Virus record (IMG/VR): IMGVR_UViG_3300037042_006698
Span: 1 to 54,293 of that record
Length of the DNA stretch: 54,293 nucleotides
Source of the DNA: a virus
Lineage: Duplodnaviria; Caudoviricetes
Strand: one strand, 5' to 3'
Position numbers and translations under genes: made by a program. Each line of letters starts with the position of its first letter. Positions within the stretch are counted from its first letter, which is position 1. The notes beneath the pieces were generated by a model. That model searched no databases. It saw nothing but the letters and a program-made list of their open reading frames with translations, and was not told the DNA's origin. Positions 2,709 to 52,684 of this stretch are shown here, piece by piece.

Positions 2709-3479
2709 ATGCCCTCCCCGAAGTATCCGCAGAGCCCGCTCGACAACCCGGCCTTCCGCCGCTGGTTCGGTGATTCCGTCGTCGTTGACGAGGACGGCGA
2801 GCCGCTCGTCGTTTACCACGGCACCGACAACGACGATTTCAAGTCATTCCGAGCCGAAGCTCTTCCCCGTGGGGGCCGAAAAGGACGACTTCTCGGAGAG
2901 GGCTTCTACTTCACGAGCGACCCCGACCAAGCCGCTCGATGGGGCAGGCATGTCATCGCAGCTTATCTCCGTATCGAGAACCCAAGAACGCAACGGGGTG
3001 GCCTGCTTGTGTCTGCCTCTTCCGATCAAGACGGAACGATTGCGGCAGGAGCGCCCGGCACACGCGACGGCGAGGTGTGGTTTATCGTGAAGAGCCCCTA
3101 CCAAATCAAGAGCGCGACCGACAACGACGGAAGCTTTGATCCCGACGACCCAGACTTCACTAGCAACGGTCGCACCTTCATCCCCCCGCAGATGGTCGCT
3201 GACGAAGCCGAATACGGCCTTCATCTGCGCGCGCAGCAGCCGCCATCGAACCGGTGCTGCACGGCGGTTGGTCTGGCGCGGGCAAAGCAGCTAAAGAACC
3301 GCGAGCCTGTCAGCGTCGATACGCTGAAGCGGATGCGGAGCTACTTCCAGCGCCATGCAGTGGACAAGAAAAGTCCGCGATGGGCTGTCGATTCAAAGGG
3401 TTTTCAGGCGTGGCTCCTATGGGGCGGCGACAGCGGACGAGACTGGTGCAATCGCATCCTCGACGGGCTTGGGGAGTAG
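2709..3479 (+). CDS. ADP-ribosyltransferase-like (polyvalent-protein type) domain fused to a phage virion-associated helical domain
   Basis: NPAFRRWFGDSVVVDEDGEPLVVYHGT, GEGFYFT and QIKSATDNDGSFD match the ART-PolyVal pattern; the C-terminal VGLARAKQL...TLKRMRSYFQRH...AWLLWGGD domain is common in phage head-region genes. Confidence 0.75.
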   Translation: MPSPKYPQSPLDNPAFRRWFGDSVVVDEDGEPLVVYHGTDNDDFKSFRAEALPRGGRKGRLLGEGFYFTSDPDQAARWGRHVIAAYLRIENPRTQRGGLLVSASSDQDGTIAAGAPGTRDGEVWFIVKSPYQIKSATDNDGSFDPDDPDFTSNGRTFIPPQMVADEAEYGLHLRAQQPPSNRCCTAVGLARAKQLKNREPVSVDTLKRMRSYFQRHAVDKKSPRWAVDSKGFQAWLLWGGDSGRDWCNRILDGLGE

Positions 3480-3484
3480 AGCGA

Positions 3485-4303
3485 ATGGCGAATCGCGCGC
3501 TGGTCATCGTCCACCTATCGAGCATCGAAAGCTATCGCTCGGCGTGCGGAAGAGACGCTGCGAACAACCTTGCGGACGCTCTTGAGCACGCCGCGAAGGA
3601 CGTCGTATCCAAGCACGGCATTGTTTACGTGGTCGATCAATTTTGGTCAGGCTCACTTCGCGACAGGGTGGCAAGGAACCTGGAGCGTGTGGGCGCAAAA
3701 TTCCTACGTTTCGACGAGGCCAAAACGACCTGGGAATGGTTTCTTCCGAGGCTTTATGGCCGCTTGCGGCGAGACAAGGTCGATCAAGTGACCGTCGCTG
3801 GCATTTGGTTTGACCCGAAGCTCGAAACGGGATGCGCTACGACCGTTTACCTCTACTTAAAGGGAAAATTCCCGACGATGGTTGACGAGGACTTGGTGGC
3901 TTGGGAATGCGACGAAGATGATGAAGACGTGCAACGAAACCCAAGCAGAGCCCTTTCTGCCGAAGAGACGGCTGACGAGTACGACCGTGGGCGCGCAAAC
4001 GAGTTCCTGACGGGAGGTTGTCTTGACTGGGCTCAGGCCTACATCGACCACGTAGGGGGAACGCTAGTCGGCGTTTTCGTTAACGGATCGATGGAACATG
4101 TCATGGTAAAGGACGGCAAGTTTGTCGTAGATGCCGTCGGCGTTCATCGTCCGAGTGCTGTCGTTTCTTGGTTCAAGAAAGCGTGGAAAACAAAAGACGT
4201 GAAGTTCTTAAAGCCACGGGAGAAAGACCTGCGGCTACTTGAGGCCGATGACGACCGATACGACGAGGCTCGCGCCCACGTTTACAACCAGTACAGACGA
4301 TGA
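3485..4303 (+). CDS. two-domain protein: isochorismatase-like fold plus papain-like Cys-His-Asp domain
   Basis: Start reassigned to ATG 3485 (GGGAG upstream). ALVIVH...VTVAGIW...GCATT; linker DEDDEDVQRNPS; then FLTGGCLDWA...MEHVMV...VVDAVG. Confidence 0.55.
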   Translation: MANRALVIVHLSSIESYRSACGRDAANNLADALEHAAKDVVSKHGIVYVVDQFWSGSLRDRVARNLERVGAKFLRFDEAKTTWEWFLPRLYGRLRRDKVDQVTVAGIWFDPKLETGCATTVYLYLKGKFPTMVDEDLVAWECDEDDEDVQRNPSRALSAEETADEYDRGRANEFLTGGCLDWAQAYIDHVGGTLVGVFVNGSMEHVMVKDGKFVVDAVGVHRPSAVVSWFKKAWKTKDVKFLKPREKDLRLLEADDDRYDEARAHVYNQYRR

Positions 4304-10651: not shown

Positions 10652-11263
10652 TCAGCCTTGGTATTCTAGGATCCAAACCTTTCCCAGTTCGGGGAAGGTT
10701 CCTTTACGCAGCTTCATGCCAGCCGCCTTTGGAACGTCAGTGTAGACGCTCTTTGGTGCGCCGCAGTGCTTCTTCTGCTCGTAGGAGAGCATCTCCAGGC
10801 GCTTTCGGGCTTGGCCTGACCGCTCCTTCATGAGCGTCATCGCTTGGGCATAGAAGACCTCAAGCCATGGGTCCAGCAGAGGAAGGGTCTCGGCAATATC
10901 CTCGGAGGATACCTCGATAAACTGGTCGCAGAACTCTTCAGAGCTGAGTTCCTTCTTCACCGTAAAGAGGTCCGTCTGAATCTCCTCGATAAGAATACAT
11001 TCCGGAAGCTCGGCGAACCGGACCCATCCCACTGTAAACGCGTTGCCCCTGCGCCAAACCGGATGGCCGGACATTAAGGACAGCTCTCGAATCGACTCAA
11101 CAACGACGCGATGCTTGCCCTTAAAGTTGCGAGCATCCAGGTTCAGTTGAAGGACCTGATTGGGGGCGGCACTCAATCGCTGGTCCTCGGACGCGTAACT
11201 TGTCTCGGTAGGGATCCAAACGACGCCCTCAGAGGCGGGCTGGTCACGGCGCGAAGCGTTCAT
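10652..11263 (-). CDS. stand-alone 'GWVR...EEIQ(S/T)D' domain protein, paralogue of the C-termini of 12761..14767 and 17248..18708
   Basis: Shared motifs NQVLQLNLD, SGHPV, FTVGWVRF, LIEEIQTD, EMLSYEQK, VYTDVPKAAGMKL, PELGKVW. Confidence 0.8.
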   Translation of the reverse strand: MNASRRDQPASEGVVWIPTETSYASEDQRLSAAPNQVLQLNLDARNFKGKHRVVVESIRELSLMSGHPVWRRGNAFTVGWVRFAELPECILIEEIQTDLFTVKKELSSEEFCDQFIEVSSEDIAETLPLLDPWLEVFYAQAMTLMKERSGQARKRLEMLSYEQKKHCGAPKSVYTDVPKAAGMKLRKGTFPELGKVWILEYQG

Positions 11264-11946: not shown

Positions 11947-12764
11947 CGTTTTTTCTCCACCCACTTTTGGAAGTACCATCCAAGGCCAGCGCAGCTTGCA
12001 ACGGTTACGAGAAGGCCAAAAATAGAAGGCCCGTCCTCAATTCCAGATCCGGGAACCCTCGAAACCCAAGGCTGGAGCAGATTCTCCCAGAAAAGAGGCG
12101 CCATGTTTGCGTGGCCACCGTGCCCGACGTTGTCGTACTGGGCAAAGTAGAGATTCTTCCCAGCCGTCCAAAGCCTTGATGGATTGGGAAGCCCTTCCGG
12201 CAGCATTCCAGCCTCTTGAATCGCGTAGTTCGACCGGTGATTGATGGCGTCAATGGTCGAACGCATCGTCTCCGCGCCGGACTGATAGTAGACACCCTTT
12301 TTCTCGGTGGAAGGATTCGCACCGATAGATGCCGTCATCAGCATGAACTTCGACGGATCCTTCAGAGCATCCAGCGCAAACTCCACGTATCCCTGCGTTG
12401 GGAGAGGACTTTTCGACGTACCGGTTTCGTACGCCGCATCGTGCAGCATCACGCCTTTGATGCGAGCACGATCCTCTGGCGACATGAGCAGGCGCTTCCA
12501 GATGTGGCCCCCAGCGCTGAAGGCGCCGAGGTAGATGTTGCCGACCTCGTCCTCACGCAGACCTAGACGATCCAAGATACCGGGAAGAATCCTTCCTCCT
12601 GATGAGACAGCCAGATCGCCACACCTCTGCGCGGATGCCCCGCCCGCAGCCTTCCCGTCGCCCGTGCAAGGTAAAAACTTTTGCACTGCATCCGCAACAG
12701 TCGCCCCAGGTACCTGCGCCGCATTGACCGGACCCGCCCAAATAACAAGATCGGGAAAGCTCAT
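11943..12764 (-). CDS. alpha/beta-hydrolase with C-terminal membrane anchor
   Basis: Nucleophile elbow LGAFSAGG, MLHDA, late His (GHGGH); C-terminal IFGLLVTVASCAGLGWYF-KKR. Confidence 0.7.
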   Translation of the reverse strand: MSFPDLVIWAGPVNAAQVPGATVADAVQKFLPCTGDGKAAGGASAQRCGDLAVSSGGRILPGILDRLGLREDEVGNIYLGAFSAGGHIWKRLLMSPEDRARIKGVMLHDAAYETGTSKSPLPTQGYVEFALDALKDPSKFMLMTASIGANPSTEKKGVYYQSGAETMRSTIDAINHRSNYAIQEAGMLPEGLPNPSRLWTAGKNLYFAQYDNVGHGGHANMAPLFWENLLQPWVSRVPGSGIEDGPSIFGLLVTVASCAGLGWYFQKWVEKKR

Positions 12765-12819
12765 CGTCGCCTAGTCCTTCGGTTGGGCGTGTACGTCCAA
12801 ACCTGGCCAAGCTCCGGCA
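12759..12819. repeat. 61-bp exact direct repeat, second copy at 17246..17306
   Basis: GCTCATCGTCGCCTAGTCCTTCGGTTGGGCGTGTACGTCCAAACCTGGCCAAGCTCCGGCA at both loci; covers the 3' ends of the two pentapeptide genes. Confidence 0.9.
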
Positions 12820-14767
12820 GTGCAAGCGACGGCGCGAGCTTCATGCCCATCGACTTTGGCAGGTCGGTGTAGACGTTGCGGGGGGAGCCATGCTCCTTCT
12901 TCTGCGCGTAGTCGAGCATCTCGACCTTCATGCCATGCTCCTCGGCCAAGTCGAAGGTCAACCCAAGCGCATCCTCGTAAAAGCGATCTGCAAATGGCTG
13001 CATCAACGCAAGCGCCTGCTCAATGTCCTCTGGCTCAAGGCCTCGCGACTGAAGTTGACTCCTGAATTCTGGATCTTTAAGACCCTTTCGTACCCCGCCC
13101 ACGTCGCTTTGGACTTCCTCGACGAGAAATCGGTCGAAGAACTCGCAGTACCTAACCCAGCCAATCGTGAACCACCTCTTACCGGTCTTTACCGGGTGAC
13201 CGGAGCGAATCGAGACCTCCTTTACCTGTCGAAGGATGCTCCTCTGCTCGTCCGTGTAGACAGGGTCATCGAGGTCAACATTGAGCTGCAAAACCTTGTT
13301 TGCGACGTCACAAATTCTTTGAGCAGAACCGTGGTATCTCGACGAGGTTACGCGCCACGTAACCCCGTGCTTTGCAACAATTCGATCCAGAAGCTCAGGC
13401 GTAAAGTCGGCGCCTTGTGTCTCCGCCTTGATCTGCTCGAATTCCTGAGGGAAGAGCTTCTTAAAGGCGCCAGCCTTCATTGGCAAAGCTTGCTTCTTCA
13501 GCTTCGAGACTACCCGAGTCTTTTTGCCCAGCGCCAACGTTCCAGAGCCCGCAACGAACTCAAACTCAAGCAATGTACCCTTCCAAATCGCATCCTCAAT
13601 ACCGACAGCTTCTTCAAGGTCGATGTCCTTCACCTTTGCGTCCTTGAAACTCGCTCCCTCAAGATTCGCCTCGTTAAATCTTGACCGAGTAAGAACGGCC
13701 TCGTCGAAATACGCATTTTGAAGCTTCGACCTTGAGAAAGATGCCTCCCGCAAATCGGCTCTAAAGAAGTTTGCTCCTCTACAATCGGAACCCGCAAAGT
13801 TCGATCTCAAAAGATGAGCATTACGAAAATTTGACGAACGAAGATCGGCATCTTTGAAGCTAACCTGATCTCCACCTGAGGCCTGTTCAAGGTCGGCTTC
13901 AGTCATTACAACACCTGCAAAGCTACTGCCTGAAAGCCTCGCGCGCTGAAGCTTCGTACCTCGGAACGTAGAAGCTTCTGCGTTAACACGTTCCATTCCT
14001 GAGAAAGACATGTCTGCGGTGTCGAATGAAACGTACGAGACATCTGCCCCATCGAATCGAGCATAAACGAGTTTAGCGCCGTAGAAGTTGGAAAGAATGA
14101 GCTTAGCTCTGTCAAATCTAGCGTAAGCTAGGTTGGTATCTCGAAAATCTGCTTTGCCTCTTGCAAGGCTAAATTCTGCGCCCTTCAATTCGGCCGCATA
14201 GAAGTCAACCACCTTGAGTTCAGTTTCAGAGAAGTTGGCCTCTTCGCCCGACGTGTCGTGAAATAGAGAATTTACGATCTTTGCCTCAGAAAACGCGCAG
14301 TACGAAATGTCCGCACGCTCAAAGTAGGCATCCTCGATCAAAGCCCTCTTGAAGTTTGACTCACTAAGATTAGCGGCTCGGAATTTCGTGCCGCTGCATC
14401 GAGACGAATAGAAATCGACATTCGGGAGTTCGCATTGTTCGAAGTTGGCGAAGCTTAGGTCAGCGCCCTCGAAAACGACGATCTTCCCTTTAGACTTCCT
14501 GAAAGAAGCTCGGGTTAGGTTTGCGCCGCTGAAAACGACGCTCTCCATGGAGCACTTCGTGAAATCTGCGGCCATGAGATTAGCGTTTACGAAGCCAACT
14601 CCTCGCAACGAAGCTCCGGAAAAGTCTGCCTCCGCGAGGTTGGCCCCATCAAGAACTACGTCCTCAAGTTTTGCGCCTCTAAAATCAGCTCGCTGACCAT
14701 CTCTGCTTCTGGTTTCCACCCAAACAATATGGGCGGCCAAGATCGCGGTCAGTTCTTCGTTCGTCAT
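12761..14767 (-). CDS. pentapeptide-repeat protein with a C-terminal EEVQSD domain (copy A)
   Basis: Start reassigned to ATG 14767 (MTNEELTAI, ATGA overlap, matches copy B). Long A(D/N)(F/L)xx repeat tract; ends YTPNRRTRRR. Confidence 0.9.
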   Translation of the reverse strand: MTNEELTAILAAHIVWVETRSRDGQRADFRGAKLEDVVLDGANLAEADFSGASLRGVGFVNANLMAADFTKCSMESVVFSGANLTRASFRKSKGKIVVFEGADLSFANFEQCELPNVDFYSSRCSGTKFRAANLSESNFKRALIEDAYFERADISYCAFSEAKIVNSLFHDTSGEEANFSETELKVVDFYAAELKGAEFSLARGKADFRDTNLAYARFDRAKLILSNFYGAKLVYARFDGADVSYVSFDTADMSFSGMERVNAEASTFRGTKLQRARLSGSSFAGVVMTEADLEQASGGDQVSFKDADLRSSNFRNAHLLRSNFAGSDCRGANFFRADLREASFSRSKLQNAYFDEAVLTRSRFNEANLEGASFKDAKVKDIDLEEAVGIEDAIWKGTLLEFEFVAGSGTLALGKKTRVVSKLKKQALPMKAGAFKKLFPQEFEQIKAETQGADFTPELLDRIVAKHGVTWRVTSSRYHGSAQRICDVANKVLQLNVDLDDPVYTDEQRSILRQVKEVSIRSGHPVKTGKRWFTIGWVRYCEFFDRFLVEEVQSDVGGVRKGLKDPEFRSQLQSRGLEPEDIEQALALMQPFADRFYEDALGLTFDLAEEHGMKVEMLDYAQKKEHGSPRNVYTDLPKSMGMKLAPSLALPELGQVWTYTPNRRTRRR

Positions 14768-14967
14768 CGGCGCACCTGAGGCATCAATCCATGTCCATGA
14801 AGCGAAGCGAACTCGAAGACGCGCTGATTCGTTAGCTGAGGACGCGAGCACTGCTTCTCGGCTCGTTCGCCACAAGCCGAGCAGAAGCAGCGAATGAAGT
14901 ACCGCCCGTACGGGTCGTAGGACGCCTCCCAATGGGCGTATGGATGGTTGGGCACTGGTTGCATCAC
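14764..14967 (-). CDS. small Cys/His-rich (zinc-finger-like) protein
   Basis: CFCSACG...HGH; tightly packed in the operon. Confidence 0.6.
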   Translation of the reverse strand: MMQPVPNHPYAHWEASYDPYGRYFIRCFCSACGERAEKQCSRPQLTNQRVFEFASLHGHGLMPQVRR

Positions 14968-15768: not shown

Positions 15769-16182
15769 CTATTCGACCAGGGCCGCCTCGATGCGAGCGC
15801 TTTCAACGATACGAGGTGCCTTCATCGGCTTCATGCCTGGCTGAACAGGCACATTCATCGAAAGAAACAGAGCCTCAAGATCCCTATAGGCATCCACAAG
15901 TTCTTTGCGAGCCGCAACGACGTTTTGCTCATCGAGACTCTTCGAGGCAAGCGATATACCGTTCAACGCAGAGAGAGCCCGGCGGGCGCGGAACATCGCA
16001 ATCTCAACCTTCTCCTGCTCGCTGCCGTTTGGGTTCAGCTTGAACCATGACTTTTGACTGTCGTCGGCCACATCAATGATGCTACCCACCCACTGAGCCA
16101 CGTTGATTGCCCCTTGAATCGCAGGCAGAAACGAAGGGCAGCCAGCCAAAAACAGGCAAAGAGCCAGAGTCGTAACCTTCAC
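15769..16182 (-). CDS. lipoprotein
   Basis: Signal peptide II with lipobox: MKVTTLALCLFLAG-C; helical mature part. Confidence 0.75.
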   Translation of the reverse strand: MKVTTLALCLFLAGCPSFLPAIQGAINVAQWVGSIIDVADDSQKSWFKLNPNGSEQEKVEIAMFRARRALSALNGISLASKSLDEQNVVAARKELVDAYRDLEALFLSMNVPVQPGMKPMKAPRIVESARIEAALVE

Positions 16183-16915: not shown

Positions 16916-17251
16916 CTATTTCAGCGCCTCAGCGATTGCCTTGTCGGCCTCGTCGCCGATCTTGTTGATGTCGAGCCACTTGCCCCATGGCATCTGCGCG
17001 GTCGCGTAAAGGATGCTCGTCGCAAGCGCAAAGCCCGCAATCTGCTTTACCTCTTCGCGCCGCTCAGGCTTTGACGTTTCCTTGTCGGTCGCCCAATCGT
17101 AGACCATGTTGCTGATCCCAATACCCCCAACTACACCCATACCGAGGACCGCCCAATGACGGTAGTCGAAGTCGTTTGAAGACGGCTTCGGCGCGGGTAA
17201 AGAGGGCGGCGGCTTTGGATCCGCAGGACGGGCAACAACACGACGGCTCAT
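16916..17251 (-). CDS. small membrane protein
   Basis: Pro-rich N-terminus and two hydrophobic segments; ATGA overlap. Confidence 0.7.
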   Translation of the reverse strand: MSRRVVARPADPKPPPSLPAPKPSSNDFDYRHWAVLGMGVVGGIGISNMVYDWATDKETSKPERREEVKQIAGFALATSILYATAQMPWGKWLDINKIGDEADKAIAEALK

Positions 17252-36558: not shown

Positions 36559-36634
36559 TCAACCCCGCGCCAGCCGCACGTTCCCTCAGGGTCCGCCAAG
36601 GAGCCTAACCCAGGGGACCCTGAGAGTCCAGGTC

Positions 36635-36841: not shown

Positions 36842-39246
36842 GGAGAATATCCCTGCTCTTGAACCTTCGCCGTGGCGATCTTCCAGAGGTTGGCAACGAA
36901 ACGCTGACCATCGCGAGTTGCAATGGCGGTGTTGGCGGAGAGCTGCTGAGCAGTTTCAACAATGTCCTGGGGCTTGAACTGACCGAGTAGCATTGCCGTC
37001 TGTTCAGGTCCGATTTCGGAAATGACGCCAATCGCGAAAGTTTCCGGACTTAGAACCTTGTTCGCTACCGCCCCTTCAAGTTTTTCAAAGAACTCGATAA
37101 TCAACGCGCCCGTGTCTCCTGCCGTCTTTTCGGAAGGAGCCTGTGACGATGTCGTGTCCGATGAACTGGCCATCGAAGGACTGCCGACTACGGCGAGCTG
37201 TGACTCCACGCTGCCTGGCGCCTGCATGGTCGATTCTGAAGCCACCTGCGCTTGGAGCGGCGAGGCCATAACGGACGGTGTTGGGGCAAAAGGCACGGGG
37301 CTCGTCGGTGGCGAATACGCGGAGCCGAAGGGAGACGACATCGCTTCCCGTGAGGGAGGCGCGCTATTGGCCGATTGGGATACGGGGGCGGCTGGAGGTG
37401 CGTACCGTGCTTGACGGGAAACAGCCTGTTGCGCCTGAGGGGCCTGTGTTTGCGGCGCCGCAAGCTGCCTAACCTGGCGCTGTTGAATCTCCCGCGCCTG
37501 AGCCTGGCCCTGCTGCATTTGCTGCTGTTGGGCCATCTGCATCTGCTGCTGCTGGGCCATCTGCATCTGCTGCGCCTGAAGCATCGAGTCCGCCTGGTCC
37601 TTTCTGGCTTGCATGATTTTTTCAAGGACCTGTGGTGCGCTGTCAAACGCTTGGCGAGCGAGTCCGAGAAATTGTGCCATCGTAGAGTTCGACTCTCCTT
37701 CGGGCTTCTCGGAGGCTATCGAAGCGTCAACTAGGCCGAGTTCGGCGCCCATTTCACGAATCTCGCGGATGGCCGTCATCGGATCCTTGTGCTGCTTTGC
37801 CCGCTCCTGATCGAGGCGGTCACGCAAATCGGAGTTCTCGCGCCTTAGATCGGCTACCTCTGATCTGATTCGCTGCTCTTCGGCCTTGACCGCCTCGCGC
37901 TTCATTTCAGCCGACTCTCGGGCGAGTGTCGATTGAGCGCGCTCGCTTTGGCGGATGCTCTCGATCTCGCGAGCCGTCATGTCGCGGACGCTCTGAAGTT
38001 CACGATCAGTGGAGAGACGCAAATCTGCGATGCGCTGGTCAAACGTCTCTCGAAGCTGAGTGACCTCGGCCTGCTTCTGAGCTGTGATCTGGTCAATACG
38101 GTAACGGGAGTCCTCGCGAAGGCGCTCGCGCTCAAGAGTCTGAGCGGACTCGTAGTTGCGGCGCTCCTCGTCATTCCGACGCGTCATGTCCTCGACGATT
38201 CTTCGATGGTCCTTCGAAATGTCATCGAGCTTTTTGGAGTTCTCATCCATGATCCGCCGACGCTCCTCGTCTGCGCGGTCACGCACCTCTCGAAGCTGAG
38301 AAGCTGACTGGTCCTTCAACTCGGCGATTCGCGCGTCATACGACACGCGCATGTCGCTGACGACTTTGGTCTCGACAGCAAGGGTCGTCGCCGTCGCCTT
38401 TTGCTTCAGTTCGATGATCTCTTCTTGTAAGCGACGGATCTCAGCGTCTTTCTGGCTGACGTCGGACTGTGCTCCATTCTTGACTGCAATGAGTTCTTGC
38501 CGAATTCGATCCGCCTCGTCGCGCCAGAATTCAATCTGTGCGGTCTTCAAACCTTGGACGTCATCGACCATGCGCTTGGTCGTCTCGTAAAAGTTCGGCA
38601 CAAGGTCTCGTTGGATTCGATCCGCCTTTTCCTCGGCACGTTGCCGGTCAAGGTGCAGACGGTCTCGCTCACGAGCGTCGAGTTGCATGCGCTGGGTTTC
38701 AACCTGGGTGTTCACGTTGCCACTTCCGTCGGGGATTGAAATTGTTGAAGCGGAATCACCGCCGATGTTTGGATCGCCAGAAACCCGAAAGCGAACGTCC
38801 TTAGCGGTCTTGTAGTCGCTTAGCGTTCCTTCGTTCTGGGTGGTTGGCTTCATCACCAATACTTGGTAGACGCCGCCGCCAAAGCGCGACCGAAACTCCT
38901 CAAGGCTAATGCGGTCGTAAATCTCGCATAGAAAGCCTGCGGTCGAATGGCCGCGAAACGACTTGGGTTCAAACCGCGTAATCCGAAGCTTCCAGTCTCC
39001 CTTTCCGATTTCCGGAAACGAGTCGTAAAGGTCCTCAAGCGAAACCACGCTTGAAGACGAACGGTTCTTGTCCCTCGATGCGTCGCGGTCGCGATCCCGA
39101 GAAGGCTTTAGAGCAAACTCCGGATCCGGTTGAAACACTGGCGATTCGCCAACGTCGTCCCAAAGCGGCGCATCGGGTAGCACAAAGGACTGGGCTTCTT
39201 GCTGCCGTCCGAGTTCGGAGGCGGCATCATCTGAGGCTTGGGTCAT
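36838..39246 (-). CDS. large coiled-coil protein with a Gln/Pro-rich linker
   Basis: N-terminal globular part (RFGGGVYQV), roughly 300-aa E/R-rich coiled coil, QMQMAQQQ repeats, helical C-terminal domain. Confidence 0.85.
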   Translation of the reverse strand: MTQASDDAASELGRQQEAQSFVLPDAPLWDDVGESPVFQPDPEFALKPSRDRDRDASRDKNRSSSSVVSLEDLYDSFPEIGKGDWKLRITRFEPKSFRGHSTAGFLCEIYDRISLEEFRSRFGGGVYQVLVMKPTTQNEGTLSDYKTAKDVRFRVSGDPNIGGDSASTISIPDGSGNVNTQVETQRMQLDARERDRLHLDRQRAEEKADRIQRDLVPNFYETTKRMVDDVQGLKTAQIEFWRDEADRIRQELIAVKNGAQSDVSQKDAEIRRLQEEIIELKQKATATTLAVETKVVSDMRVSYDARIAELKDQSASQLREVRDRADEERRRIMDENSKKLDDISKDHRRIVEDMTRRNDEERRNYESAQTLERERLREDSRYRIDQITAQKQAEVTQLRETFDQRIADLRLSTDRELQSVRDMTAREIESIRQSERAQSTLARESAEMKREAVKAEEQRIRSEVADLRRENSDLRDRLDQERAKQHKDPMTAIREIREMGAELGLVDASIASEKPEGESNSTMAQFLGLARQAFDSAPQVLEKIMQARKDQADSMLQAQQMQMAQQQQMQMAQQQQMQQGQAQAREIQQRQVRQLAAPQTQAPQAQQAVSRQARYAPPAAPVSQSANSAPPSREAMSSPFGSAYSPPTSPVPFAPTPSVMASPLQAQVASESTMQAPGSVESQLAVVGSPSMASSSDTTSSQAPSEKTAGDTGALIIEFFEKLEGAVANKVLSPETFAIGVISEIGPEQTAMLLGQFKPQDIVETAQQLSANTAIATRDGQRFVANLWKIATAKVQEQGYSP

Positions 39247-39255
39247 GGTTGAACC

Positions 39256-39771
39256 TCAGATTGCAGCCGATTCGTATTCGTCTTCTTCTGCTTCCGCTTC
39301 CGATTCATCGTCGGATTCAGCTTCGTCGTCTTCATCCGTATCGGCCGTATTTTCGCTAACCCATTCGCGAACTCGCTCAACGAGAAGCATCGCCTCGCTT
39401 AGCCTCTGATCTGCATCTGAATTGATGCTTGCGCTGCTGTCGCGAATGAGGCGAACGAAAACTTCGCACGTCGCGGCCAGGCTTAAGATCATGTTTGCCT
39501 CGTCTTCGCCAAGAATAGGTGGCTCTGATCCAGCCTCCAGCGTGCTCAGGCGAGCATCCACATCTTGGAGACTGTCGCTGACGTATTGTCGGAACTGCAA
39601 AAAATAACCGACAAGGTCCTCCATCACGCTGAGGCCAGTATCGCTTAGCTCCGAAAGAACTTTCTTCGGCGTCGGCTCAGCAATCTTTCCCAGGCGTTCT
39701 CGCTGAAGGCGTACGTCGGCCCAAAGATTTGTAAGTGCATCCTGCTCAATCGAGTCAATTTGCTGGGTCAT
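39256..39771 (-). CDS. helical protein with an acidic tail
   Basis: C-terminal DTDEDDEAESDDESEAEAEEDEYE. Confidence 0.75.
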   Translation of the reverse strand: MTQQIDSIEQDALTNLWADVRLQRERLGKIAEPTPKKVLSELSDTGLSVMEDLVGYFLQFRQYVSDSLQDVDARLSTLEAGSEPPILGEDEANMILSLAATCEVFVRLIRDSSASINSDADQRLSEAMLLVERVREWVSENTADTDEDDEAESDDESEAEAEEDEYESAAI

Positions 39772-39820
39772 AGGTCTTTCAGTCGTTCGGGTGTTGTTCC
39801 AAAAGGTGCTGGCGGCGCGC

Positions 39821-40663
39821 TTACGCGAGCCGGAAAGGCTTTACAAGCTCAAGGTGGCGCTTGCTGTTCAACCGCGTTCGGTCGAAGCTTTCGAGGTACT
39901 TCTCAGTTGTCGCTGGGTCAACAGGGTTGCGGTAGTCGCAGGCATAAACTGCCTCGTCGCGCAAGGACATGTACGCACCGCCAACGCTGCGTCGTGCTGA
40001 GCAGTTGTAAAATCGAATCAGATGGCCATGCTCTTTCGGATTCGGAACGTCGTCATTCGCCATCACCTGACGCAGGAAATGTTTGCAGCGCTCGCGGCGC
40101 ATGCGGACAGCGACGTAAAATTCTTCCTCGCGCACTACCGCCACGCCAAACTTCCGCTCAACCCGCGATGGCTCGAATTCCCTGCGCTCACGCTCTTCGC
40201 CGGTTGACGCATGGAAACGCGACAAAACGTTGGCAAACATCGTGCTCTCACGAGCCTCCGCTGGCGTGAAGCGCTGACCAGATTTGCGCTCCCATCCTCG
40301 GGCTTCGACCTCGTCATCGAAAAGCTCAACAAACATCGTGTCGTCTTCCACGCAGACGACGGTGTCACGCGTGAAAGGATGAGCCGCCGCCAAATCATGA
40401 CGCTCGTCGGCGGGAACGGGCATGCCGTCTACCGGGCTTTCGACGAGAATCGATGTGATCGGCTGATACGCTTCGAAAATTTCCTCGCGCAACGAGACTT
40501 CCGCATCATCCGCTTTACCATCACGCTCTGTCACGCCTACCTCGCATTCATCTGCTGGCACGTCGCAGTCAAAACCGTCCGCCTCGGCGAGTGGTTCATC
40601 CTCAAGCTCTTTTCGGTCTTGTTCCACGGCGGCCAAGGTAGTGATGAAGCGCGACCGGCGCAA
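39821..40663 (-). CDS. hypothetical protein (start uncertain)
   Basis: Acidic N-terminus; C-terminal domain with Cys in RCKHF, NCSAR and ACDYR. Confidence 0.65.
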   Translation of the reverse strand: MRRSRFITTLAAVEQDRKELEDEPLAEADGFDCDVPADECEVGVTERDGKADDAEVSLREEIFEAYQPITSILVESPVDGMPVPADERHDLAAAHPFTRDTVVCVEDDTMFVELFDDEVEARGWERKSGQRFTPAEARESTMFANVLSRFHASTGEERERREFEPSRVERKFGVAVVREEEFYVAVRMRRERCKHFLRQVMANDDVPNPKEHGHLIRFYNCSARRSVGGAYMSLRDEAVYACDYRNPVDPATTEKYLESFDRTRLNSKRHLELVKPFRLA

Positions 40664-40998
40664 TCCTTGACAGAGTATGTCCTAAAAACGACTTTCATCG
40701 ACGACCGAAAAACGCGATCATCATGCTGTAATCGTTAACGTTTTCGCCGGAAAGCGGACACGATCGAAAATTCCCCTGTTGACCGACGATGGCCCAATCG
40801 TTCAGGCTGTCGATCCGCTCGGAAGGAATTCGCCTTCCGGCACGACAAAAAGCAGCGGGCGTTCGCTTCGACTCGAACGCCCGCTCGCGCATACAAGCGC
40901 AGGGAACTTTTGGACCCAACTGAAAGCTACCCTGCGCGAACAGCCACGTCAAGACAGTACAACGTATTGTCATGTAGTGTCACTTCGCAGGTCAGGGA

Positions 40999-42168
40999 AT
41001 GCCGAACAATCTTAGGTCAACGACCAGCAAGAGCGCACGCAAGCGCAAGCGGGGCGAGTCGGAAGAGGACTACGCAAAGCGCATTGCGCGAATTGAGTCA
41101 AAGCGACTCAGCGAAGCAAAGCGAAGGCAAAAAAGCTCATCGTCTAAAAGTCAAGACGATTCTTTGGGCGAGAAGCTTGGCGCTGATCATATCTTTTCTG
41201 AGCAGTCAACCTCAAAGACGTCTCCCGTTGTTGAGCGTTTTTTGGAGCAGCACTCTGCCGACCTGACAAGCGCGTCTGCCGAGGTCGAAAAATTGAGGCG
41301 ATTGCTCTCCGACGAGCGGCGCGAAAGGGAGCGCCTTCAGCGCGAAATTGCCATCCGCGACGAACTCGTAAACCACCGAAATGACGTGGCCGAGCAGTCG
41401 AATTCTGTAAAGTCCCTGTTTTTGAATCAATCAATTGAAATCATTGACCTTTCTTCGTCTCGTGGGCACGAGCATGCAGATCACGAAATCATTGACCTTT
41501 TTGCACATGATGGACAGGTGCCAGAAATCGTGTCCACAATTGCTCCTAACCATGCAAATTCTAAAGAACTTTCTGCCTCCCCTGGACACCTGGAAAGTGA
41601 CCCTACCTCTAAGAATATCTCCTTAAGAGATATTCTTAGAGGTAGGGCGACTCACCGGCCTGTTTGGGGCTCCGGCGAATCAGAGCGGGAGCGGCGGAGA
41701 GATCCGGAGCAAACAAAAAACGATGCGCGACCCGAACCAACGATGACGCTTGCGGAGGCAGCCGAGAAGCTGCTATGGGTTGGTTGGGTTGACCGTGCGC
41801 GCCGTGAATTTCCTTCCGATCCGCTTCTCGTTCGCTTCGGCGCTCGTGAGGAACGTGCGTGGTCGGATGTCGTCGCAAGCACCGCTGAGTTCGTCGGTTG
41901 CGACAACGTCAACGCCGTCTGCGACCCGATTCCGTTCGCCCTCGAACTGACGTGGACGCTGCGTTATGCGCTGGATTCGCTTCCAGCAGCAACGCCAGTC
42001 CTCGATGTTTGTTGGCGCTACATCTCGTCGTTCATGAAGCCTCAGCCTCGCTCACGCCTCGGCGTGTACGCTGGAACTGAAAAGCTTGAAGTTGTCAAGA
42101 GAAAGTTTGAGGCGGTTGAATTTGAGCTTTCGACGGGGATGCTCGTCATTCAGCGGGGGGACGTCTGA
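40999..42168 (+). CDS. putative replication initiator/organiser
   Basis: First gene of the rightward operon, coupled to a DnaB-like helicase (TGATG); contains internal direct repeats and a long palindrome in a low-complexity linker. Confidence 0.55.
   Translation: MPNNLRSTTSKSARKRKRGESEEDYAKRIARIESKRLSEAKRRQKSSSSKSQDDSLGEKLGADHIFSEQSTSKTSPVVERFLEQHSADLTSASAEVEKLRRLLSDERRERERLQREIAIRDELVNHRNDVAEQSNSVKSLFLNQSIEIIDLSSSRGHEHADHEIIDLFAHDGQVPEIVSTIAPNHANSKELSASPGHLESDPTSKNISLRDILRGRATHRPVWGSGESERERRRDPEQTKNDARPEPTMTLAEAAEKLLWVGWVDRARREFPSDPLLVRFGAREERAWSDVVASTAEFVGCDNVNAVCDPIPFALELTWTLRYALDSLPAATPVLDVCWRYISSFMKPQPRSRLGVYAGTEKLEVVKRKFEAVEFELSTGMLVIQRGDV
41437..41500. repeat. 16-bp direct repeat GAAATCATTGACCTTT x2 (iteron-like)
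   Basis: Copies at 41437-41452 and 41485-41500, 48 nt apart. Confidence 0.75.
41601..41647. repeat. perfect 21-bp inverted repeat, candidate replication origin element
   Basis: CCCTACCTCTAAGAATATCTC-CTTAA-GAGATATTCTTAGAGGTAGGG; AT-rich core. Confidence 0.9.
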
Positions 42169-48669: not shown

Positions 48670-49288
48670 AAAGGTACGGGCTGCACTCGCGTGCGCGAAG
48701 GACCTGCCTCTCGATGAACTTGTAGCGGTTTTGAACGAGATTCGTCGCGCCATTCAGCACGCGAGCCCATTCAAGGACGAGCCCGTTGACCTTGTGACGT
48801 GGGTCCGAGCCGACTGCCTAACAGGAAACGACTACAACCCGAACACCGTTGCACCTCCGGAGATGGAGCTGCTCCGACATTCGATTCGATCGGACGGCTA
48901 CACGCAGCCGATCGTTGCGTTCGAGAAGGACGGAAAGTTCGAGGTGGTGGATGGTTTCCACCGCCACCGGGTAGGAAAGGAAACACCGGATATTCAGGCA
49001 CGTCTTTCAGGCTACCTTCCGGTTGTCGTCATCAACCAAAGCCGCGATGGCAAGAGTGACCGCATGGCTTCGACGATCCGGCACAATCGGGCGCGAGGAA
49101 AGCATCAGGTCGATGCCATGAGCGACATCGTCATTGAACTCTTTCGTCGAGGATGGTCGAACGATCAGATCGGCAATGAGCTTGGCATGCAAGAGGATGA
49201 GGTCCTGAGGCTTAAGCAAGTTTCAGGGCTCGCGGATTTGTTCAAGGACGCCGAATTTTCTAAGTCCTGGGATTGGATTCCAGAATGA
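48641..49288 (+). CDS. ibrB: ParB/Srx-like nuclease-domain protein (IbrB/YbdM-like)
   Basis: SPFKDEPVD, NDYNPNTVAPPEMELL, DGYTQPIV, VVDGFHR, STIRHNRARGKH, LGMQEDEVLRLKQ. Confidence 0.92.
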   Translation: MTGESSQIVEKVRAALACAKDLPLDELVAVLNEIRRAIQHASPFKDEPVDLVTWVRADCLTGNDYNPNTVAPPEMELLRHSIRSDGYTQPIVAFEKDGKFEVVDGFHRHRVGKETPDIQARLSGYLPVVVINQSRDGKSDRMASTIRHNRARGKHQVDAMSDIVIELFRRGWSNDQIGNELGMQEDEVLRLKQVSGLADLFKDAEFSKSWDWIPE

Positions 49289-50124
49289 TCGTGCATCAAA
49301 GCCTCGACCGGGATTTCTTTGCAATCATCGATACGCCGGAGAAGGCGTACGTGCTCGGTTTGATTTGGTCGGACGGAACCATCGACTCGCGGAGCAAGCA
49401 GGTGAGGCTCAGGCTTCACCAGAAGGATGGAGAGGTTCTGGAGGCTATCTCGAAGATCGTTGGCGGAGTGTCACCGAAAACGATCGCTCCGAGCGGCAAC
49501 GCAAAATCGCCTCAATCGGCTCTCATCTGGAGCAGTCAGAAGATGGTTTCGGATCTTGAGAAACTAGGCCTCTGCCGAAACAAGGATCAGGTTCTTCCAA
49601 AAGCCCAGATGGTTGACCTTCGCTTCGAAGCCGATTTCGTTAGGGGCCTCGTCGATGGCGACGGGTGCGTTCAGTTCGTGAACTCGACACCCAGGATCTC
49701 GTTCAGGAACAGAAACGACCACCTTCTTGGGTTTGTTCGTAACTTCTGGAAGCGCGCAACTGGCGTTGATGTGTCGCTCGACGGAAAGAAGCCACACAAG
49801 GGCACTGGGAGAATTTATCCAAGCGTCTACATGAGCGGCACGAACGCCGTTGCTGCTGCAAATGCGACGTACGACGGAGCCCGTATAGCGATGGCAAGAA
49901 AGCTGTCGGTGGTCCACGAGTTCAAACGCTGGGTTCCAAGTCCTCACCGAAACCGGTTCCGATTCGGACCTGTCATCAAGCGAATTGGAAGCTCGGGCAA
50001 CTCTGCTGCCCTGCTTCTTGATGCAGCGGTTGCAGGTCATCTTGGGGTTTCAAAAGGCGACTACGTTGAGATTGAGCTGATGTCAGACTGCTCGCTGTCT
50101 GTTCGTCGATCAAAAAAACCTTGA
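49285..50124 (+). CDS. LAGLIDADG homing-endonuclease-like protein with a C-terminal AbrB/MazE-like domain
   Basis: FFAIIDTPEKAYVLGLIWSDG and FVRGLVDGDGC; C-terminal GNSAALLLDAAVAGHLGVSKGDYVEIEL; ATGA overlap. Confidence 0.85.
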   Translation: MIVHQSLDRDFFAIIDTPEKAYVLGLIWSDGTIDSRSKQVRLRLHQKDGEVLEAISKIVGGVSPKTIAPSGNAKSPQSALIWSSQKMVSDLEKLGLCRNKDQVLPKAQMVDLRFEADFVRGLVDGDGCVQFVNSTPRISFRNRNDHLLGFVRNFWKRATGVDVSLDGKKPHKGTGRIYPSVYMSGTNAVAAANATYDGARIAMARKLSVVHEFKRWVPSPHRNRFRFGPVIKRIGSSGNSAALLLDAAVAGHLGVSKGDYVEIELMSDCSLSVRRSKKP

Positions 50125-50236
50125 CCCAATCTTGCGGGCATGGTTTTCTTTGACCCGAAGTAACGGTTCGTCTGCCGGGAGCACTTTTGAGCGACTGGGG
50201 GCAGGCCACTGTGCTTAAAAGCACAAGTGCGTCCCC

Positions 50237-52684
50237 ATGCCGAAAGCAGCTTTGGCAAAACCTATCTCGCGTAATCAGGCATTGTCCTACGACAGGACAG
50301 TGCCGAATGGCCTTGGCGTGACGGCAATCTCAGCCGTGAACGGCCGTGGGAGCTACGCGCGCTTCGCGGCGAATCGTTACAAGGCAACGCGCAGCATTAT
50401 CGGCGGCGCTGGTTCGTCTTCCGAACTCTCACCGAATGGAGACGGGATGTTTTACTACAAGAACAAGAAAAGCGCGCCGAAGATGAGCGCAAAGGCCAAG
50501 AAGAAGTGCGCTCCGCTCGTGAGCAAGGCTGTCTCGGAGGCGAAAGCGGCCCTCGACAAACTTGCCAAGAAGTCGAAGCCCGCGAAAAAGGCCAAGAAGC
50601 GCAAGCTGAGCGCTGCCCAAAAGGCGGCGCTCAAGAAGGGTCAGGCCATGATGGCTGCTCGTCGCGCGGCGATTGCCTCCGGTCGTCCTCTTCCGAAGAA
50701 AGCCCCCAAGAAGGCCGCCCCCAAGAAGGCCGCCCCCAAGAAGGCGAAAAAGGCTTCCAAGAAGGCTCCGAAGCGGGCAAAGAAGTACCAGCCGAAGCCT
50801 TTCGTGCGTAAGGCTGCTCCGAAGCGTAAGGCTGCTCCGAAGCGTAAGGCTGCTCCGAAGCGTAAGGCTGCCGCAAAGCACAAGGCGCCGAAGCATAGCG
50901 CCAAGAAGTCCAAGAAGTTTAAGCGTGTCAAAGCGCTCTACGTTCTTGCTAACCGCAAGTATCGCGCAAACCTCAGCTACGATCAGCTCGTCGCGTACGA
51001 GGCTGCTCGCGCGAAGAAGTCCGCTCCGGCTGCTGCCCAGTCTGCTGCCGCCCCGGCGCGGGGTCTCGCTGCTTACCGGCAGCTCCGCGCGCAGGTGAAG
51101 TCGCTCAAGGATGCTGCCCGTGGCGAGGCGGGTCCCGCGAAGGCCGCTCGCGACAAGGCGAAGGCAGACTACGCTGCGGCGGTGAAGTCGTTTAAGGGTA
51201 AGAAGGACGCTGGGTCGAAGGCCCAGCTTCGTCAAGCCAAGGCGACCCTCGACGTGGCGCAGGCGCAGTATGATTACGCGCAGCACCTTACCGATGCGAA
51301 GATCGCTGCGGCTCAGGGCATGCTTCCCGCCAAGAAGGCACGCAAGGCTCGCAAGCCGGTTCAGCCTCGCGTGTTCGGCGCTCAGTACAAGTCGAAGCGC
51401 GTTCGCGTCGGCAAGAGCGGTCACGCGAACGTTGTGGCGCGCATCGGCAAGAAGGGCGTTGCCACCTACATGTACCTCGACAAGAAAGGCAAGGCGCGCA
51501 AGCTCCCTGACTGGATGGTCGCCGGTGCCCCGAGCGCCGAAGCGTTCGAGAAGAAGCCTGCGTATAAGGAGCGCCTTGCAGCTCGCCGCAAGAAGGCGGC
51601 CGAGTCGGTCAGCAAGAAGGTCCTCGCAGGCAACTATCCGTTCACCCCGAATAAGCGGGTGGTGACTTTTGAACAGTGGGCAAAATCTATGAAGAAGAAG
51701 CACAAGAAGCACGGTAAGGCTCGCCACAACCCGCTTATGCAGGCAGCGGCGAACAAGAAGCGCGGTCGCAAGCACCGCAAGGCTCGTCGCAACCCCCTCA
51801 TGCAGGCAGCGGCGAACAAGAAGCGTGGTCGCAAGCACTCGAAGCGCATGCACCGTAACGGCCAGGTTGCGACGTACATCAGCAACATGGGCGCTTACGC
51901 TTCGGACCTCCTTGAGGTTTTGAAGAGCGGCGCGGTCGTCAGCGGCGGCCTCATCGCCCACAAGGCGCTGACCAACGTCGTCGTCGAGCAGGCGTTCGGC
52001 AAGATTGAGTTCCTCGGCAAGCTCCCCGCGAAGTACCAGAAGAGCGTCGCGGCTGTCGCCGTGGCGGCCGTTGGTATCCCGCTTTCGACGAAGTTCGGCG
52101 GCCAGTATGGCAAGAAGGTCAGCATGGGCATGGGCGCCGCCCTCGTCCACACGCTGTTCTCCGAGCTGCTCGGCGGCATGGACTCGACGGCGAAGTACAA
52201 GCAGTACCTCGGATCGTACACCGAGGCCGACATGAGGCTTCCGATGGGCTCGTACTACGAGTTCCAGCCGGGTCAGTCTTATGCCGGAATGGGTGAGTAC
52301 ATTGAGCAGTCCGGCCCTTTGGCCGGTTTCGGTGAGCTTCAGCAAGCGGCGGCCGGTTTCGGCTCGCCCGCGCTGATGCAGGCCGCTGCTGGGGTTGGCG
52401 AGTACATTGTGTCCGGTGCCGAGGGTATCGGCGAGTACGAGCAGGTTCGCCCTGAGTACACCGCGCCCCATTCGCTTCGTGAAGGCATCGCGCCGAGCCT
52501 CGGTTCGGCCGAGCAAGCGCTGAACATCGCGGAGGCGGCGGCTGGAGTGGGTGGTCTTGGAAATCAGGACCTCTCCCTTGAGCAGACCGTCTACCCGCAA
52601 GGTCAGGCCCTCGATATCGGGGACCAGCCTGGCGGAAGCCGTGCCGGTGTCTTTTACGGCGGCAACGGCGTGTTTGGTCCCTGA
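50237..52684 (+). CDS. histone-H1-like, membrane-linked putative virion core/scaffold protein
   Basis: KKAAPKK and KAAPKR repeats, a duplicated KARxNPLMQAAANKKRGRKH, hydrophobic helices, then an acidic tail with G-(M/F/V/I)-G-E repeats; directly upstream of the capsid candidate. Confidence 0.8.
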   Translation: MPKAALAKPISRNQALSYDRTVPNGLGVTAISAVNGRGSYARFAANRYKATRSIIGGAGSSSELSPNGDGMFYYKNKKSAPKMSAKAKKKCAPLVSKAVSEAKAALDKLAKKSKPAKKAKKRKLSAAQKAALKKGQAMMAARRAAIASGRPLPKKAPKKAAPKKAAPKKAKKASKKAPKRAKKYQPKPFVRKAAPKRKAAPKRKAAPKRKAAAKHKAPKHSAKKSKKFKRVKALYVLANRKYRANLSYDQLVAYEAARAKKSAPAAAQSAAAPARGLAAYRQLRAQVKSLKDAARGEAGPAKAARDKAKADYAAAVKSFKGKKDAGSKAQLRQAKATLDVAQAQYDYAQHLTDAKIAAAQGMLPAKKARKARKPVQPRVFGAQYKSKRVRVGKSGHANVVARIGKKGVATYMYLDKKGKARKLPDWMVAGAPSAEAFEKKPAYKERLAARRKKAAESVSKKVLAGNYPFTPNKRVVTFEQWAKSMKKKHKKHGKARHNPLMQAAANKKRGRKHRKARRNPLMQAAANKKRGRKHSKRMHRNGQVATYISNMGAYASDLLEVLKSGAVVSGGLIAHKALTNVVVEQAFGKIEFLGKLPAKYQKSVAAVAVAAVGIPLSTKFGGQYGKKVSMGMGAALVHTLFSELLGGMDSTAKYKQYLGSYTEADMRLPMGSYYEFQPGQSYAGMGEYIEQSGPLAGFGELQQAAAGFGSPALMQAAAGVGEYIVSGAEGIGEYEQVRPEYTAPHSLREGIAPSLGSAEQALNIAEAAAGVGGLGNQDLSLEQTVYPQGQALDIGDQPGGSRAGVFYGGNGVFGP
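50806..50871. repeat. 18-bp tandem repeat GCGTAAGGCTGCTCCGAA x3.7
   Basis: Encodes RKAAPK repeats. Confidence 0.9.
51716..51838. repeat. 63-bp-period tandem duplication
   Basis: Encodes KAR(H/R)NPLMQAAANKKRGRKH twice. Confidence 0.85.

Follow-up and report, generated by a model that had tools for sequence, protein, structure and literature searches.

In phages T4, phiKZ and SPN3US, one prohead protease cuts many head and internal proteins at a short consensus and removes their N-terminal propeptides; these enzymes are of the serine type, with Glu as the last residue of their sites. The adenovirus protease (adenain, AVP) recognises the sites (M/I/L)XGX-G and (M/I/L)XGG-X (PMC7998265), in a virus that has basic, histone-like core proteins (PMC4246237). 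The protease of mavirus (MVP) cuts GG↓X and GX↓G (arrow, position of the cut) at four sites in the variable C-terminal domain of the capsid protein, which yields pieces of 12-14 residues; of 12 virophage capsid proteins compared, 10 retain the sites (PMC6048507). Outside viruses, the bacterial cysteine protease LapG cuts LapA at one conserved site between Ala108 and Ala109 (giving AGPSAAGTGG) and thereby frees the protein from its anchor (PMC3032545). Here we analyse a stretch of 54,293 bases, hereafter called the window, which is the whole of a linear IMG/VR record of a Caudoviricetes virus (IMGVR_UViG_3300037042_006698; CheckV completeness 36%). We describe a short glycine motif that recurs in unrelated proteins of one of its gene blocks, and we weigh the possibility that it marks sites of maturation cleavage.

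The original prediction for this DNA, read from the raw sequence, was that two peptide tags are shared by unrelated proteins: an Asn-centred tag that would address proteins to a DNA-containing lumen, and a tag G-[LFMVI]-G that would bind capsid or scaffold, or mark cleavage sites, outside an internal membrane. All 23 strings quoted in its support are present in the genes named. As to the interpretation, the glycine motif does recur in unrelated proteins and is conserved, and cleavage is the function that we favour, while the Asn signal and the membrane split were not supported. The prediction also held that no such system had been described. Protease sites resembling the glycine tag, of the forms GX↓G and (M/I/L)XGX↓G, are in fact known in a virophage and in adenovirus (PMC6048507, PMC7998265). 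What would be new here is a GXG-type motif in a bacterial virus group with a different class of candidate enzyme.

The window is a member of a sizeable, uncultivated group of large bacterial viruses. Complete relatives measure about 138-144 kb, two of them with direct terminal repeats, and one further fragment reaches 182 kb. We compared the window with five related records (G001 and G004 to G007), four of which are complete; G004 is a complete relative of 143,727 bases with direct terminal repeats. The presence of PG_binding_1, SLT, DnaB and a DnaG-type primase (the latter in G004) indicates a bacterial host. Genes are named below by their coordinates in the window or by the first of these. 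In the minus-strand block 22611-40663 the gene order 39821 - 39256 - 36838 - 35971 - ... - 33114 - 32762 - 31582 - 31191 - 29847 is maintained in relatives. No Pfam family was found for this block or for the 815-aa Lys/Ala-rich protein encoded at 50237-52684, which we call the core protein, and the sole PHROG match of the two is to the peptidoglycan-binding part of 22611.

Aligned across families, the motif reads Φ-[S/A/N]-G-[F/L/I/V/M]-[G/D], where Φ is hydrophobic and the residue behind the motif is free. These alignments identify it as a conserved short linear motif that recurs in unrelated proteins of one gene block. Unrelated families have the same flank preferences, hydrophobic at -4 and Ser or Ala at -3, and the sites lie at borders between conserved domains and hypervariable linkers. 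For example, 34 homologues were found of the tail-anchored protein 33114-34322, none of them named, and 31 sequences were aligned down to 37% identity. The first of its two sites reads R-[FY]-L-[SNP]-G-[FLVM]-[GD] in this family: G-Φ-G is present in 29 of the 31 sequences and G-Φ-[GD] in all of them, L54 and G56 are invariant, and the sequence directly behind the motif is hypervariable. At the second site 23 of the 31 sequences have G-Φ-G and 25 have G-Φ-[GD], within a linker that is otherwise unalignable. Among 15 non-redundant and more distant homologues from IMG/VR loci, 13 carry the first site as R-x-Φ-[AS]-G-[LMF]-G and about 12 the second as [PA]-[VI]-[SN]-G-Φ-G, and both sites are retained down to 29% identity.

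The same holds in other families of the block to varying degrees. At the SGFGS site of 22611-23960, 16 of 21 sequences (down to 30% identity) have G-Φ-G and 17 have Φ/A-x-G-Φ-[GD], and G241 is conserved in at least 90%. This site lies at a domain boundary, because many of the 150 matches listed stop at about residues 228-238. Searched against 1.84 billion representatives, 22611-23960 gives 807 hits altogether (195 with an E of 1e-10 or lower), most of which are to the N-terminal domain only and stop near residue 230. In the family of 31191-31652 (14 sequences), close relatives keep G-[LI]-G and distant ones have R-S-L-A-G-[ILMV]-D, that is Φ-x-G-Φ-D, in the same place. All four sites of the low-complexity protein 34344-35153 align with AGLGN, SGMGE, SGFGS and DGLGQ in a single homologue from locus L002 (28% identity over 168 residues). 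Seven of the eight members of the 32762-33283 family have G-[LF]-[GD], and the copy in the window is a G-D-D. Near N-termini, four adjacent paralogues of G001 carry T-x-L-[SA]-G-[FY]-G-D-S from about residues 13-16, and three ORFs (open reading frames) of G004 have the motif from about residues 24-28. No homologue of 29394, 30474, 30726 or 35329 was found among the related loci compared.

In 22611-23960, residues 1-235 match no Pfam family and contain an invariant D-Y-S-Q and an invariant His. This N-terminal domain is fused to a Cys-rich segment, a peptidoglycan-binding domain and an anchor, and owing to this fusion the protein is probably a cell-wall enzyme.

A tandem array of the motif is found in the tail of the core protein, which has nine G-[LFMVI]-G in total. 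Its homologues in G001 (859 aa) and G004 (761 aa) have the same tail array, so that the tails of the three genomes carry 6-7 [SA]-G-Φ-G copies each, spaced 9-23 residues apart. Most units read Q-A-A-A-G-Φ-G, and the last copy follows about 40 residues further on (AEAAAGVG). As to the remainder of the core protein, histone-H1-like AKKAAPKK/APKRKAA repeats occupy about residues 85-230, further basic stretches follow, and a moderately hydrophobic region (about 555-650) precedes the G-Φ-G tail. This overall plan is kept in G001 and G004, the basic part being barely alignable.

For the statistics we curated 65 ORFs of the window (16,973 residues) from a mechanical ORF list, based on strand runs and on GC by codon position, and divided them into 26 'structural' ORFs and 39 others. 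When whole proteins are shuffled, bare G-[LFMVI]-G is found 25 times against 12.9 expected in the structural ORFs and 16 times against 14.8 elsewhere. Local shuffles, confined to stretches of 20 or 40 residues, preserve the local composition. With these, [SA]G[LFMVI]G is found 12 times in structural ORFs compared to 2.9-3.2 expected; without the core protein the count is 7 compared to 2.5-2.6, which 13-16 of 1000 shuffles reach, and in the other ORFs it is 5 compared to 3.0-3.1. Lengthened to five residues by an acidic or hydroxyl residue after it, a form defined after seeing the examples, the pattern gives 9 compared to 0.7. Bare G-Φ-G as first proposed is not enriched once the core is left out, and it is the sharper Φ-[SA]-G-[FLIVM]-[G/D] that is real and conserved. 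The signal of the window alone is modest and only suggestive, and the case therefore rests on the homologues and on replication in a relative.

This replication was done in G004 with the pattern [SA]G[LFMVI]G fixed beforehand and with 500 local shuffles over 40 residues. In the G004 block, defined as 1-15.6 kb plus 33-68.5 kb, the pattern occurs 19 times against 6.5 expected, and none of the 500 shuffles reaches this number. Without the core protein 13 occurrences remain against 5.9 expected (2 of 500 shuffles). The pattern is present in 12 proteins of the block compared to 5.8 expected; in the 140 ORFs of the rest of G004 it is, if anything, depleted (4 against 7.3). No more than three of these 12 are matched by BLAST to any protein of the window, hence the replication is not merely the same sites counted again. 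The block as defined includes some glycosyl- and methyltransferases, and ORF calling is crude at 60% G+C.

The middle of the block also encodes a candidate enzyme for the motif, 35971-36558. It has 222 homologues at 57-99% identity, none of them named and none with a Pfam family, and is the best-conserved gene of the block and a near-universal one. Across 27 sequences D122-C123-D124, H155 and D172 are invariant, and the order and spacing of Cys, His and Asp in the alignment are those usual for the transglutaminase fold. The best structural match of its AlphaFold 2 (AF2) model (pLDDT 86.9) is the putative protease 3kd4 (Z 13.3, root-mean-square deviation (rmsd) 2.9, 137 residues aligned), which is also the top Foldseek match (E 3.8e-4). 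Further matches are factor XIII (4kty, Z 10.7), the transglutaminases TG3 (Z 10.3) and TG2 (Z 9.9), the putative cysteine protease 3isr (Z 9.8), PNGase (2f4o, Z 8.5), LapG (4fgo, Z 8.3, rmsd 4.3, 125 aligned; Foldseek probability 0.98-1.00) and CPR-C4 (Z 8.0). The protein matched no Pfam or PHROG family at E 0.01 and no PDB entry by sequence or profile. Since no curated sequence family is matched, its superfamily membership is at the level of the fold. In all 20 IMG/VR loci found through 35971-36558 the gene is syntenic with motif-bearing genes, and in 18 of them a 33114 homologue lies within 10 kb. A complex prediction of 35971-36558 with residues 30-90 of the 33114 family, run without controls, gave a score of 0.00 and a mark of 0.32 and has no bearing either way.

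Within residues 1-22 of 35971-36558, a leader that differs between family members in length and sequence precedes the stretch [GS]-[FY]-L-G-x-L-P, which is conserved and includes an invariant Gly. This may be a site related to the motif, and it may serve in autoprocessing.

We tentatively favour, at somewhat less than an even chance, the reading that the motif sites are maturation cleavage sites cut by 35971-36558. An endoproteolytic cut would fall within or next to G-Φ↓G. Such cutting would take short leaders off N-termini, split domains from one another, release ectodomains from their C-terminal membrane anchors and shorten the core protein at its repeat-bearing tail, and the most likely enzyme would be the Cys-His-Asp protein of transglutaminase-like fold in the middle of the block. 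We favour cleavage because of the form of the adenovirus site, the parallel with mavirus and the precedent of LapG; the placement of the motif at domain and linker borders and near N-termini is moreover typical of processing sites. Cutting of the motif, the part of 35971-36558 in it and the location of these proteins in the virion are what we infer from a motif that is conserved and restricted to one gene block and from an enzyme fold with an invariant triad.

Several points weigh against cleavage. All that concerns cutting is deduced. The conservation within families would be equally expected of a structural turn, and homologous sites in relatives are not independent observations. Bare G-[LFMVI]-G, with the core excluded, is not significantly enriched under local shuffles (16 against 12.9), the sharper five-residue form was chosen post hoc, and an unbiased scan of the window for 4-mers in a reduced alphabet did not single the motif out (small-G-Φ-G in 6 proteins against 2.6 expected, rank 213 of 2451 by the number of proteins containing it). 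Some sites are poorly kept: AGIGE of 22611 is present in only the three closest of 21 sequences, is weak and may be due to chance, and the site of 31582-32508 is kept in one of two relatives (VSGLGV in G001; AAMGI, not a G-Φ-G, in G004). The fold of the candidate is also that of true transglutaminases, PNGase, N-acetyltransferases and isopeptidases, so that 'protease' is a putative designation. Finally, its fold sets the candidate apart from the clan CE (adenain-type) proteases, by which the GX↓G sites of adenovirus and virophage are cut. The structural matches listed include no adenain or Ulp1 chain, and the PF00770 (Peptidase_C5) profile found nothing in four records, the control genomes being silent too.

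The rather unlikely alternative that comes next is that the motif is not cut but is a signal for docking or assembly, a short peptide with one partner for all its carriers; this could be the capsid shell, a scaffold or the 802-aa coiled-coil protein. Membrane proteins and the core protein would in this way be recruited to the particle, with multivalent binding through the tandem copies of the core tail. Encapsulin cargo-loading peptides, which have a Gly-hydrophobic-Gly-like core, are a precedent for docking motifs of this kind. Conservation and restriction to the gene block are explained by docking as they are by cleavage, and the 6-7 tandem copies in the core tails of three genomes fit avidity. 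Nonetheless the partner is a postulated one, and the most conserved candidate shell protein, 52832-53602, gave a poor model. Sites at about residues 13-28 before a conserved domain, or directly before anchors, suit removal of a leader or an anchor equally well or better, and mavirus demonstrates that closely spaced sites can all be cut (PMC6048507).

It is unlikely that the motif involves no common recognition at all, each G-Φ-G/D being an independent turn, hinge or glycine packing near a helix, with recurrence the result of Gly/Ala/Ser-rich linkers and of a pattern chosen post hoc. The lack of enrichment of the bare form without the core, the unremarkable rank in the unbiased scan and the weak conservation of some sites are all as this explanation would have them. 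Local shuffles over 20 or 40 residues, which preserve the composition locally, still give 12 against about 3, however, and the pattern fixed beforehand replicates in G004, mostly in proteins without window homologues, and is if anything depleted elsewhere. The preferences at -4 and -3, common to unrelated families, likewise speak for common recognition.

Quite unlikely is the suggestion that 35971-36558 is a true transglutaminase and that the motif, at least in the form Q-A-A-A-G-Φ-G, marks flexible Gln donors to be cross-linked to lysines of Lys-rich core or shell proteins. In its favour, the best structural matches include factor XIII, TG3 and TG2 (Z 9.9-10.7), a Gln precedes the first Gly by five residues in most tail units of the three genomes, 30474 and 30726 start with YMQAVAG and YAQAVAG, respectively, and the core protein is very Lys-rich. 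Against these, most sites outside the core are without a nearby Gln (RFLSGFGE, AVSGFGS, VNGFGD, EVSGLGD), the invariant parts of the motif are Gly residues and hydrophobic positions, and proteases account for the best of the fold matches and for several more.

The two tags were also supposed to lie on opposite sides of a membrane. Their positions do not support this. Both kinds are found N-terminal of C-terminal anchors: the Asn tag FRKNPDG of 28908 and the glycine tags of 31191, 31582 and 33114 all are, and the glycine tag of 29394 is C-terminal of its helix. At the Kyte-Doolittle threshold used, no helix is predicted in 34344 or in the core protein of the window, and one is predicted in the core of G004. 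In ten ORFs of the window a hydrophobic helix stands at the C-terminus, with no more than a few, often basic, residues behind it. The glycine tag is not a general feature of such membrane-anchored proteins, as the prediction had it. G-Φ-[GD] lies within 25 residues of the anchor in only 3 of 10 tail-anchored ORFs of the window, 2 of 16 of G004 and 1 of 14 of G001, compared to a background of 8-11% in the same proteins, and the motif also occurs far from anchors. Most tail-anchored ORFs thus have no motif nearby, so that it is neither a general mark of membrane proteins nor a C-terminal sorting signal, and a general pre-anchor signal was rejected. Accordingly, we consider it very improbable that the copies near C-termini serve for sorting in the manner of sortase, exosortase or rhombosortase and are processed by a host or viral sorting enzyme: 33114 and several members of the 31191 family do show motif, spacer, helix and a Lys/Arg-rich end, but with these counts near anchors, a variable spacer of about 10 residues or more, and copies near N-termini, at internal junctions, after the helix of 29394 and in tandem in the core tail, such processing does not fit.

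The Asn-centred tag, for its part, is not a signal. In 1000 whole-protein shuffles of the 65 curated ORFs, N[PG] is expected 72.7 times and is observed 91 times, a mild excess that the structural ORFs (41 against 31.4) show no more strongly than the others (50 against 41.2). NP and TPN are enriched only among the non-structural ORFs (NP 24 against 15.0), and in G004 the patterns N[PG] and PN together are at expectation in both parts of the genome (126 against 115.8 and 163 against 149.5). The examples are not independent, because some are duplicate copies and others belong to paralogues: RHNP and RRNP are the two copies of the 63-nt duplication in the core gene, which is absent from the core homologue of G001, and YTPNRRTRRR terminates two paralogous pentapeptide-repeat proteins (repeat families D3-D5). 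The presence of KATPN in two proteins is unremarkable, given 116 exact 5-mers common to different proteins compared to 91.4 in shuffles. The only examples kept in homologues are FTPN[KR] and PNG[LI]G of the core. SPNG, LANRKYRAN, RHNP/RRNP, HRNG, KATPN, KNGRR and VGAAD are not kept, and at least 7 of the 9 examples that could be checked in relatives are unconserved. DFTSNG of 2709 is at a true domain junction, since the G004 homologue begins right after it, and that homologue is without such a tag. No homologue of the Asn-tag proteins 3485, 4300, 9320, 28908 and 12761 was found among the related loci compared. What had been taken for a signal is a generic NP/PN/NG dipeptide bias plus duplication and paralogy; a two-residue tag picked out visually in the raw letters cannot be told apart from these.

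The ART-PolyVal protein 2709-3479 (+) consists of two modules, and its G004 counterpart (130158-130847) has the C-terminal module only (61% identity), with a different tail.

Glycine-motif sites and other features of the window
Feature	Position	Strand	Basis or remark
LSGFGE, residues 54-59 of 402-aa tail-anchored 33114-34322 (site 1)	34146-34163	-	31-sequence alignment
ASGLGT, residues 364-369 of 33114-34322, about 10 residues before the C-terminal anchor (site 2)	33216-33233	-	alignment
SGFGS, residues 240-244 of 449-aa 22611-23960, just after the widely shared N-terminal domain	23229-23243	-	alignment
AGIGE, residues 308-312 of 22611-23960	23025-23039	-	alignment
SGLGD, residues 105-109 of 31191-31652, just before the hydrophobic helix	31326-31340	-	14-sequence family
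SGLG, residues 201-204 of 31582-32508, abutting the first helix	31897-31908	-	aligned with G001 and G004
Four G-Φ-G (VGMGD, NGFGD, NGVGA, DGLGG) in 269-aa low-complexity 34344-35153	34377-34949	-	aligned with L002
FNGDDGG in 32762-33283, degenerate copy of the motif, not listed in the original prediction	32861-32881	-	family alignment
AGLG, residues 116-119 of 29394-29840, C-terminal of the helix	29484-29495	-	string present
Core-protein tail, seven G-Φ-G in residues 682-775 of 815-aa 50237-52684	52280-52561	+	first five 10-13 residues apart
195-aa protein of transglutaminase fold, candidate enzyme for the motif	35971-36558	-	mid-block; AF2 model
63-nt tandem duplication encoding KHGKARHNPLMQAAANKKRGR twice	51707-51832	+	repeat family D6, 89% identity
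256-aa protein, candidate shell	52832-53602	+	661 homologues at 60-89% identity, no family
Candidate shell neighbour, cut by the end of the window; 380 aa in G004	53759-54292	+	position after the core gene
tRNA-Asn (anticodon GTT)	2626-2699	+	just upstream of the ART-PolyVal gene

By motifs, and with homologues annotated in relatives, the window encodes a UvrD-like helicase, an SNF2-like helicase, DnaB and a primase. The families found are PG_binding_1, SLT, GP88, ART-PolyVal, PAPS_reduct+DUF3440, ParB_N, LAGLIDADG, Nuc_deoxyrib_tr and DUF5872. Among 30 ORFs of G004 searched against Pfam and PHROG, only replication enzymes, glycosyl- and methyltransferases and a 'tail protein' repeat were recognised. 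A single-protein scan of IMG/VR with 29847-30470 and a megablast of 29000-41000 against phage records found no relative. The literature searched (papers without their supplements) held nothing on this virus group, nor on phage maturation proteases of transglutaminase-like type.

The genes give little indication of the particle type. Terminase_6N, Terminase_6C, Phage_capsid and Phage_portal gave no Pfam match in the five related records, and no packaging ATPase was recognised in them; the FtsK and Pox_A32 signals seen are only Walker-A matches in the DnaB helicase and a DnaC-like loader. Peptidase_S78 (PF04586) was found in none of the five records, with positive controls in four genomes, a search that divergent members could escape, and Peptidase_S77 (PF03420) in none either, but with silent controls. 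The candidate shell proteins are 52832-53602 and its 380-aa neighbour, so considered because the two immediately follow the core gene in G001 and G004 as in the window. For 52832-53602 there is a weak lead (0.78) in feature space to the PRD1 P3/P2 capsid clusters and no PDB match by sequence or profile, and its AF2 model (29 sequences, pLDDT 49.6) is too poor for a structure search. The neighbour has no named cluster in the feature-space comparison. With 661 homologues of the candidate shell in public data, the virus group is common yet uncharacterised.

For the 380-aa neighbour, a designation as 'major capsid protein' was rejected, as its weak PDB hit (8h89_A, E 0.011) did not reappear with a profile of six sequences. 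Given a G+C at third codon positions (GC3) of 0.84 and 0.75 on the plus strand, the ORFs 52751-53683 and 53690-54076 on the minus strand are probably shadows.

Some further genes deserve mention. Three of the minus-strand ORFs 12761-14932, 17248-18708, 16179-16814 and 10652-11263 encode pentapeptide-repeat proteins. The two long ones have an N-terminal segment and a C-terminal domain in common (76-78% nucleotide identity in parts), and the 203-aa ORF 10652-11263 is, by eye, this C-terminal domain. A LAGLIDADG_3 homing-endonuclease-like ORF (49273-50124, +) lies between a ParB_N-like gene and the core gene. The 175-aa ORF 18705-19232 (-), a possible second protease, has a zinc-protease-like H-E-F-G-H motif and is 44-46% identical to proteins in locus L016 and in G004. 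Finally, unrelated ORFs begin with M-S-[YF]-[RAS]: 35329-35958 and 35153-35332 (both -) in the window, the G001 ORFs 1401 and 8051, and several members of the transglutaminase-fold family. The two window neighbours both open with MSYR[LV]A[KR], followed by Φ-G-x-D. These starts may be a common N-terminal signal or due to chance.

It is doubtful, on present evidence, that this group matures its particle in the manner of adenovirus and virophages, with many proteins, among them a histone-like core protein and several membrane-anchored ones, cut at Φ-x-G-Φ↓G by an enzyme of a different fold. If so, this would be a second, convergent invention of GXG-directed virion maturation, the site logic of adenovirus and virophage having been reached independently. 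A transglutaminase-fold enzyme would join the short list of virion maturation proteases, as a protease class not known so far from phage morphogenesis. Moreover, if the sites are cut, they map the mature ends of about 12 otherwise unannotatable proteins in a common virus group.

How far does the locus resemble the known systems? Unlike the sites of phage prohead proteases, the motif has no conserved residue after G-Φ-G. LapG has in common with 35971-36558 the class of fold, transglutaminase-like, and shows that an enzyme of this fold can be a protease specific for a site of small residues; it differs in having no relation to it at the sequence level, in a site that is Ala-Ala and not G-Φ-G, and in being a periplasmic regulator of adhesion and not a viral enzyme. 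The adenovirus site has the same form as Φ-[SA]-G-Φ-G here, with Leu at -4 in 31 of 31 sequences at the first site of 33114. Φ/A-x-G-Φ-[GD] is found in 31/31, 23/31 and 17/21 sequences at three sites, and it matches the adenain consensus in form only. As in adenovirus, the candidate substrates include a basic, histone-like core protein; unlike in adenovirus, the candidate enzyme has a transglutaminase-like fold and the genes indicate a bacterial host. MVP belongs to clan CE of the cysteine proteases, and mavirus is a small virus of eukaryotes with a double-jelly-roll capsid protein, whereas the genome here is about 140 kb or more and the candidate enzyme is of another fold. Nonetheless, it is with mavirus that the arrangement of the sites compares closely: conserved sites stand in variable surroundings, as in the array of the core tail and at the second site of 33114, and the repeat spacing of 9-13 residues in the core tail is similar to that of the pieces released by MVP.

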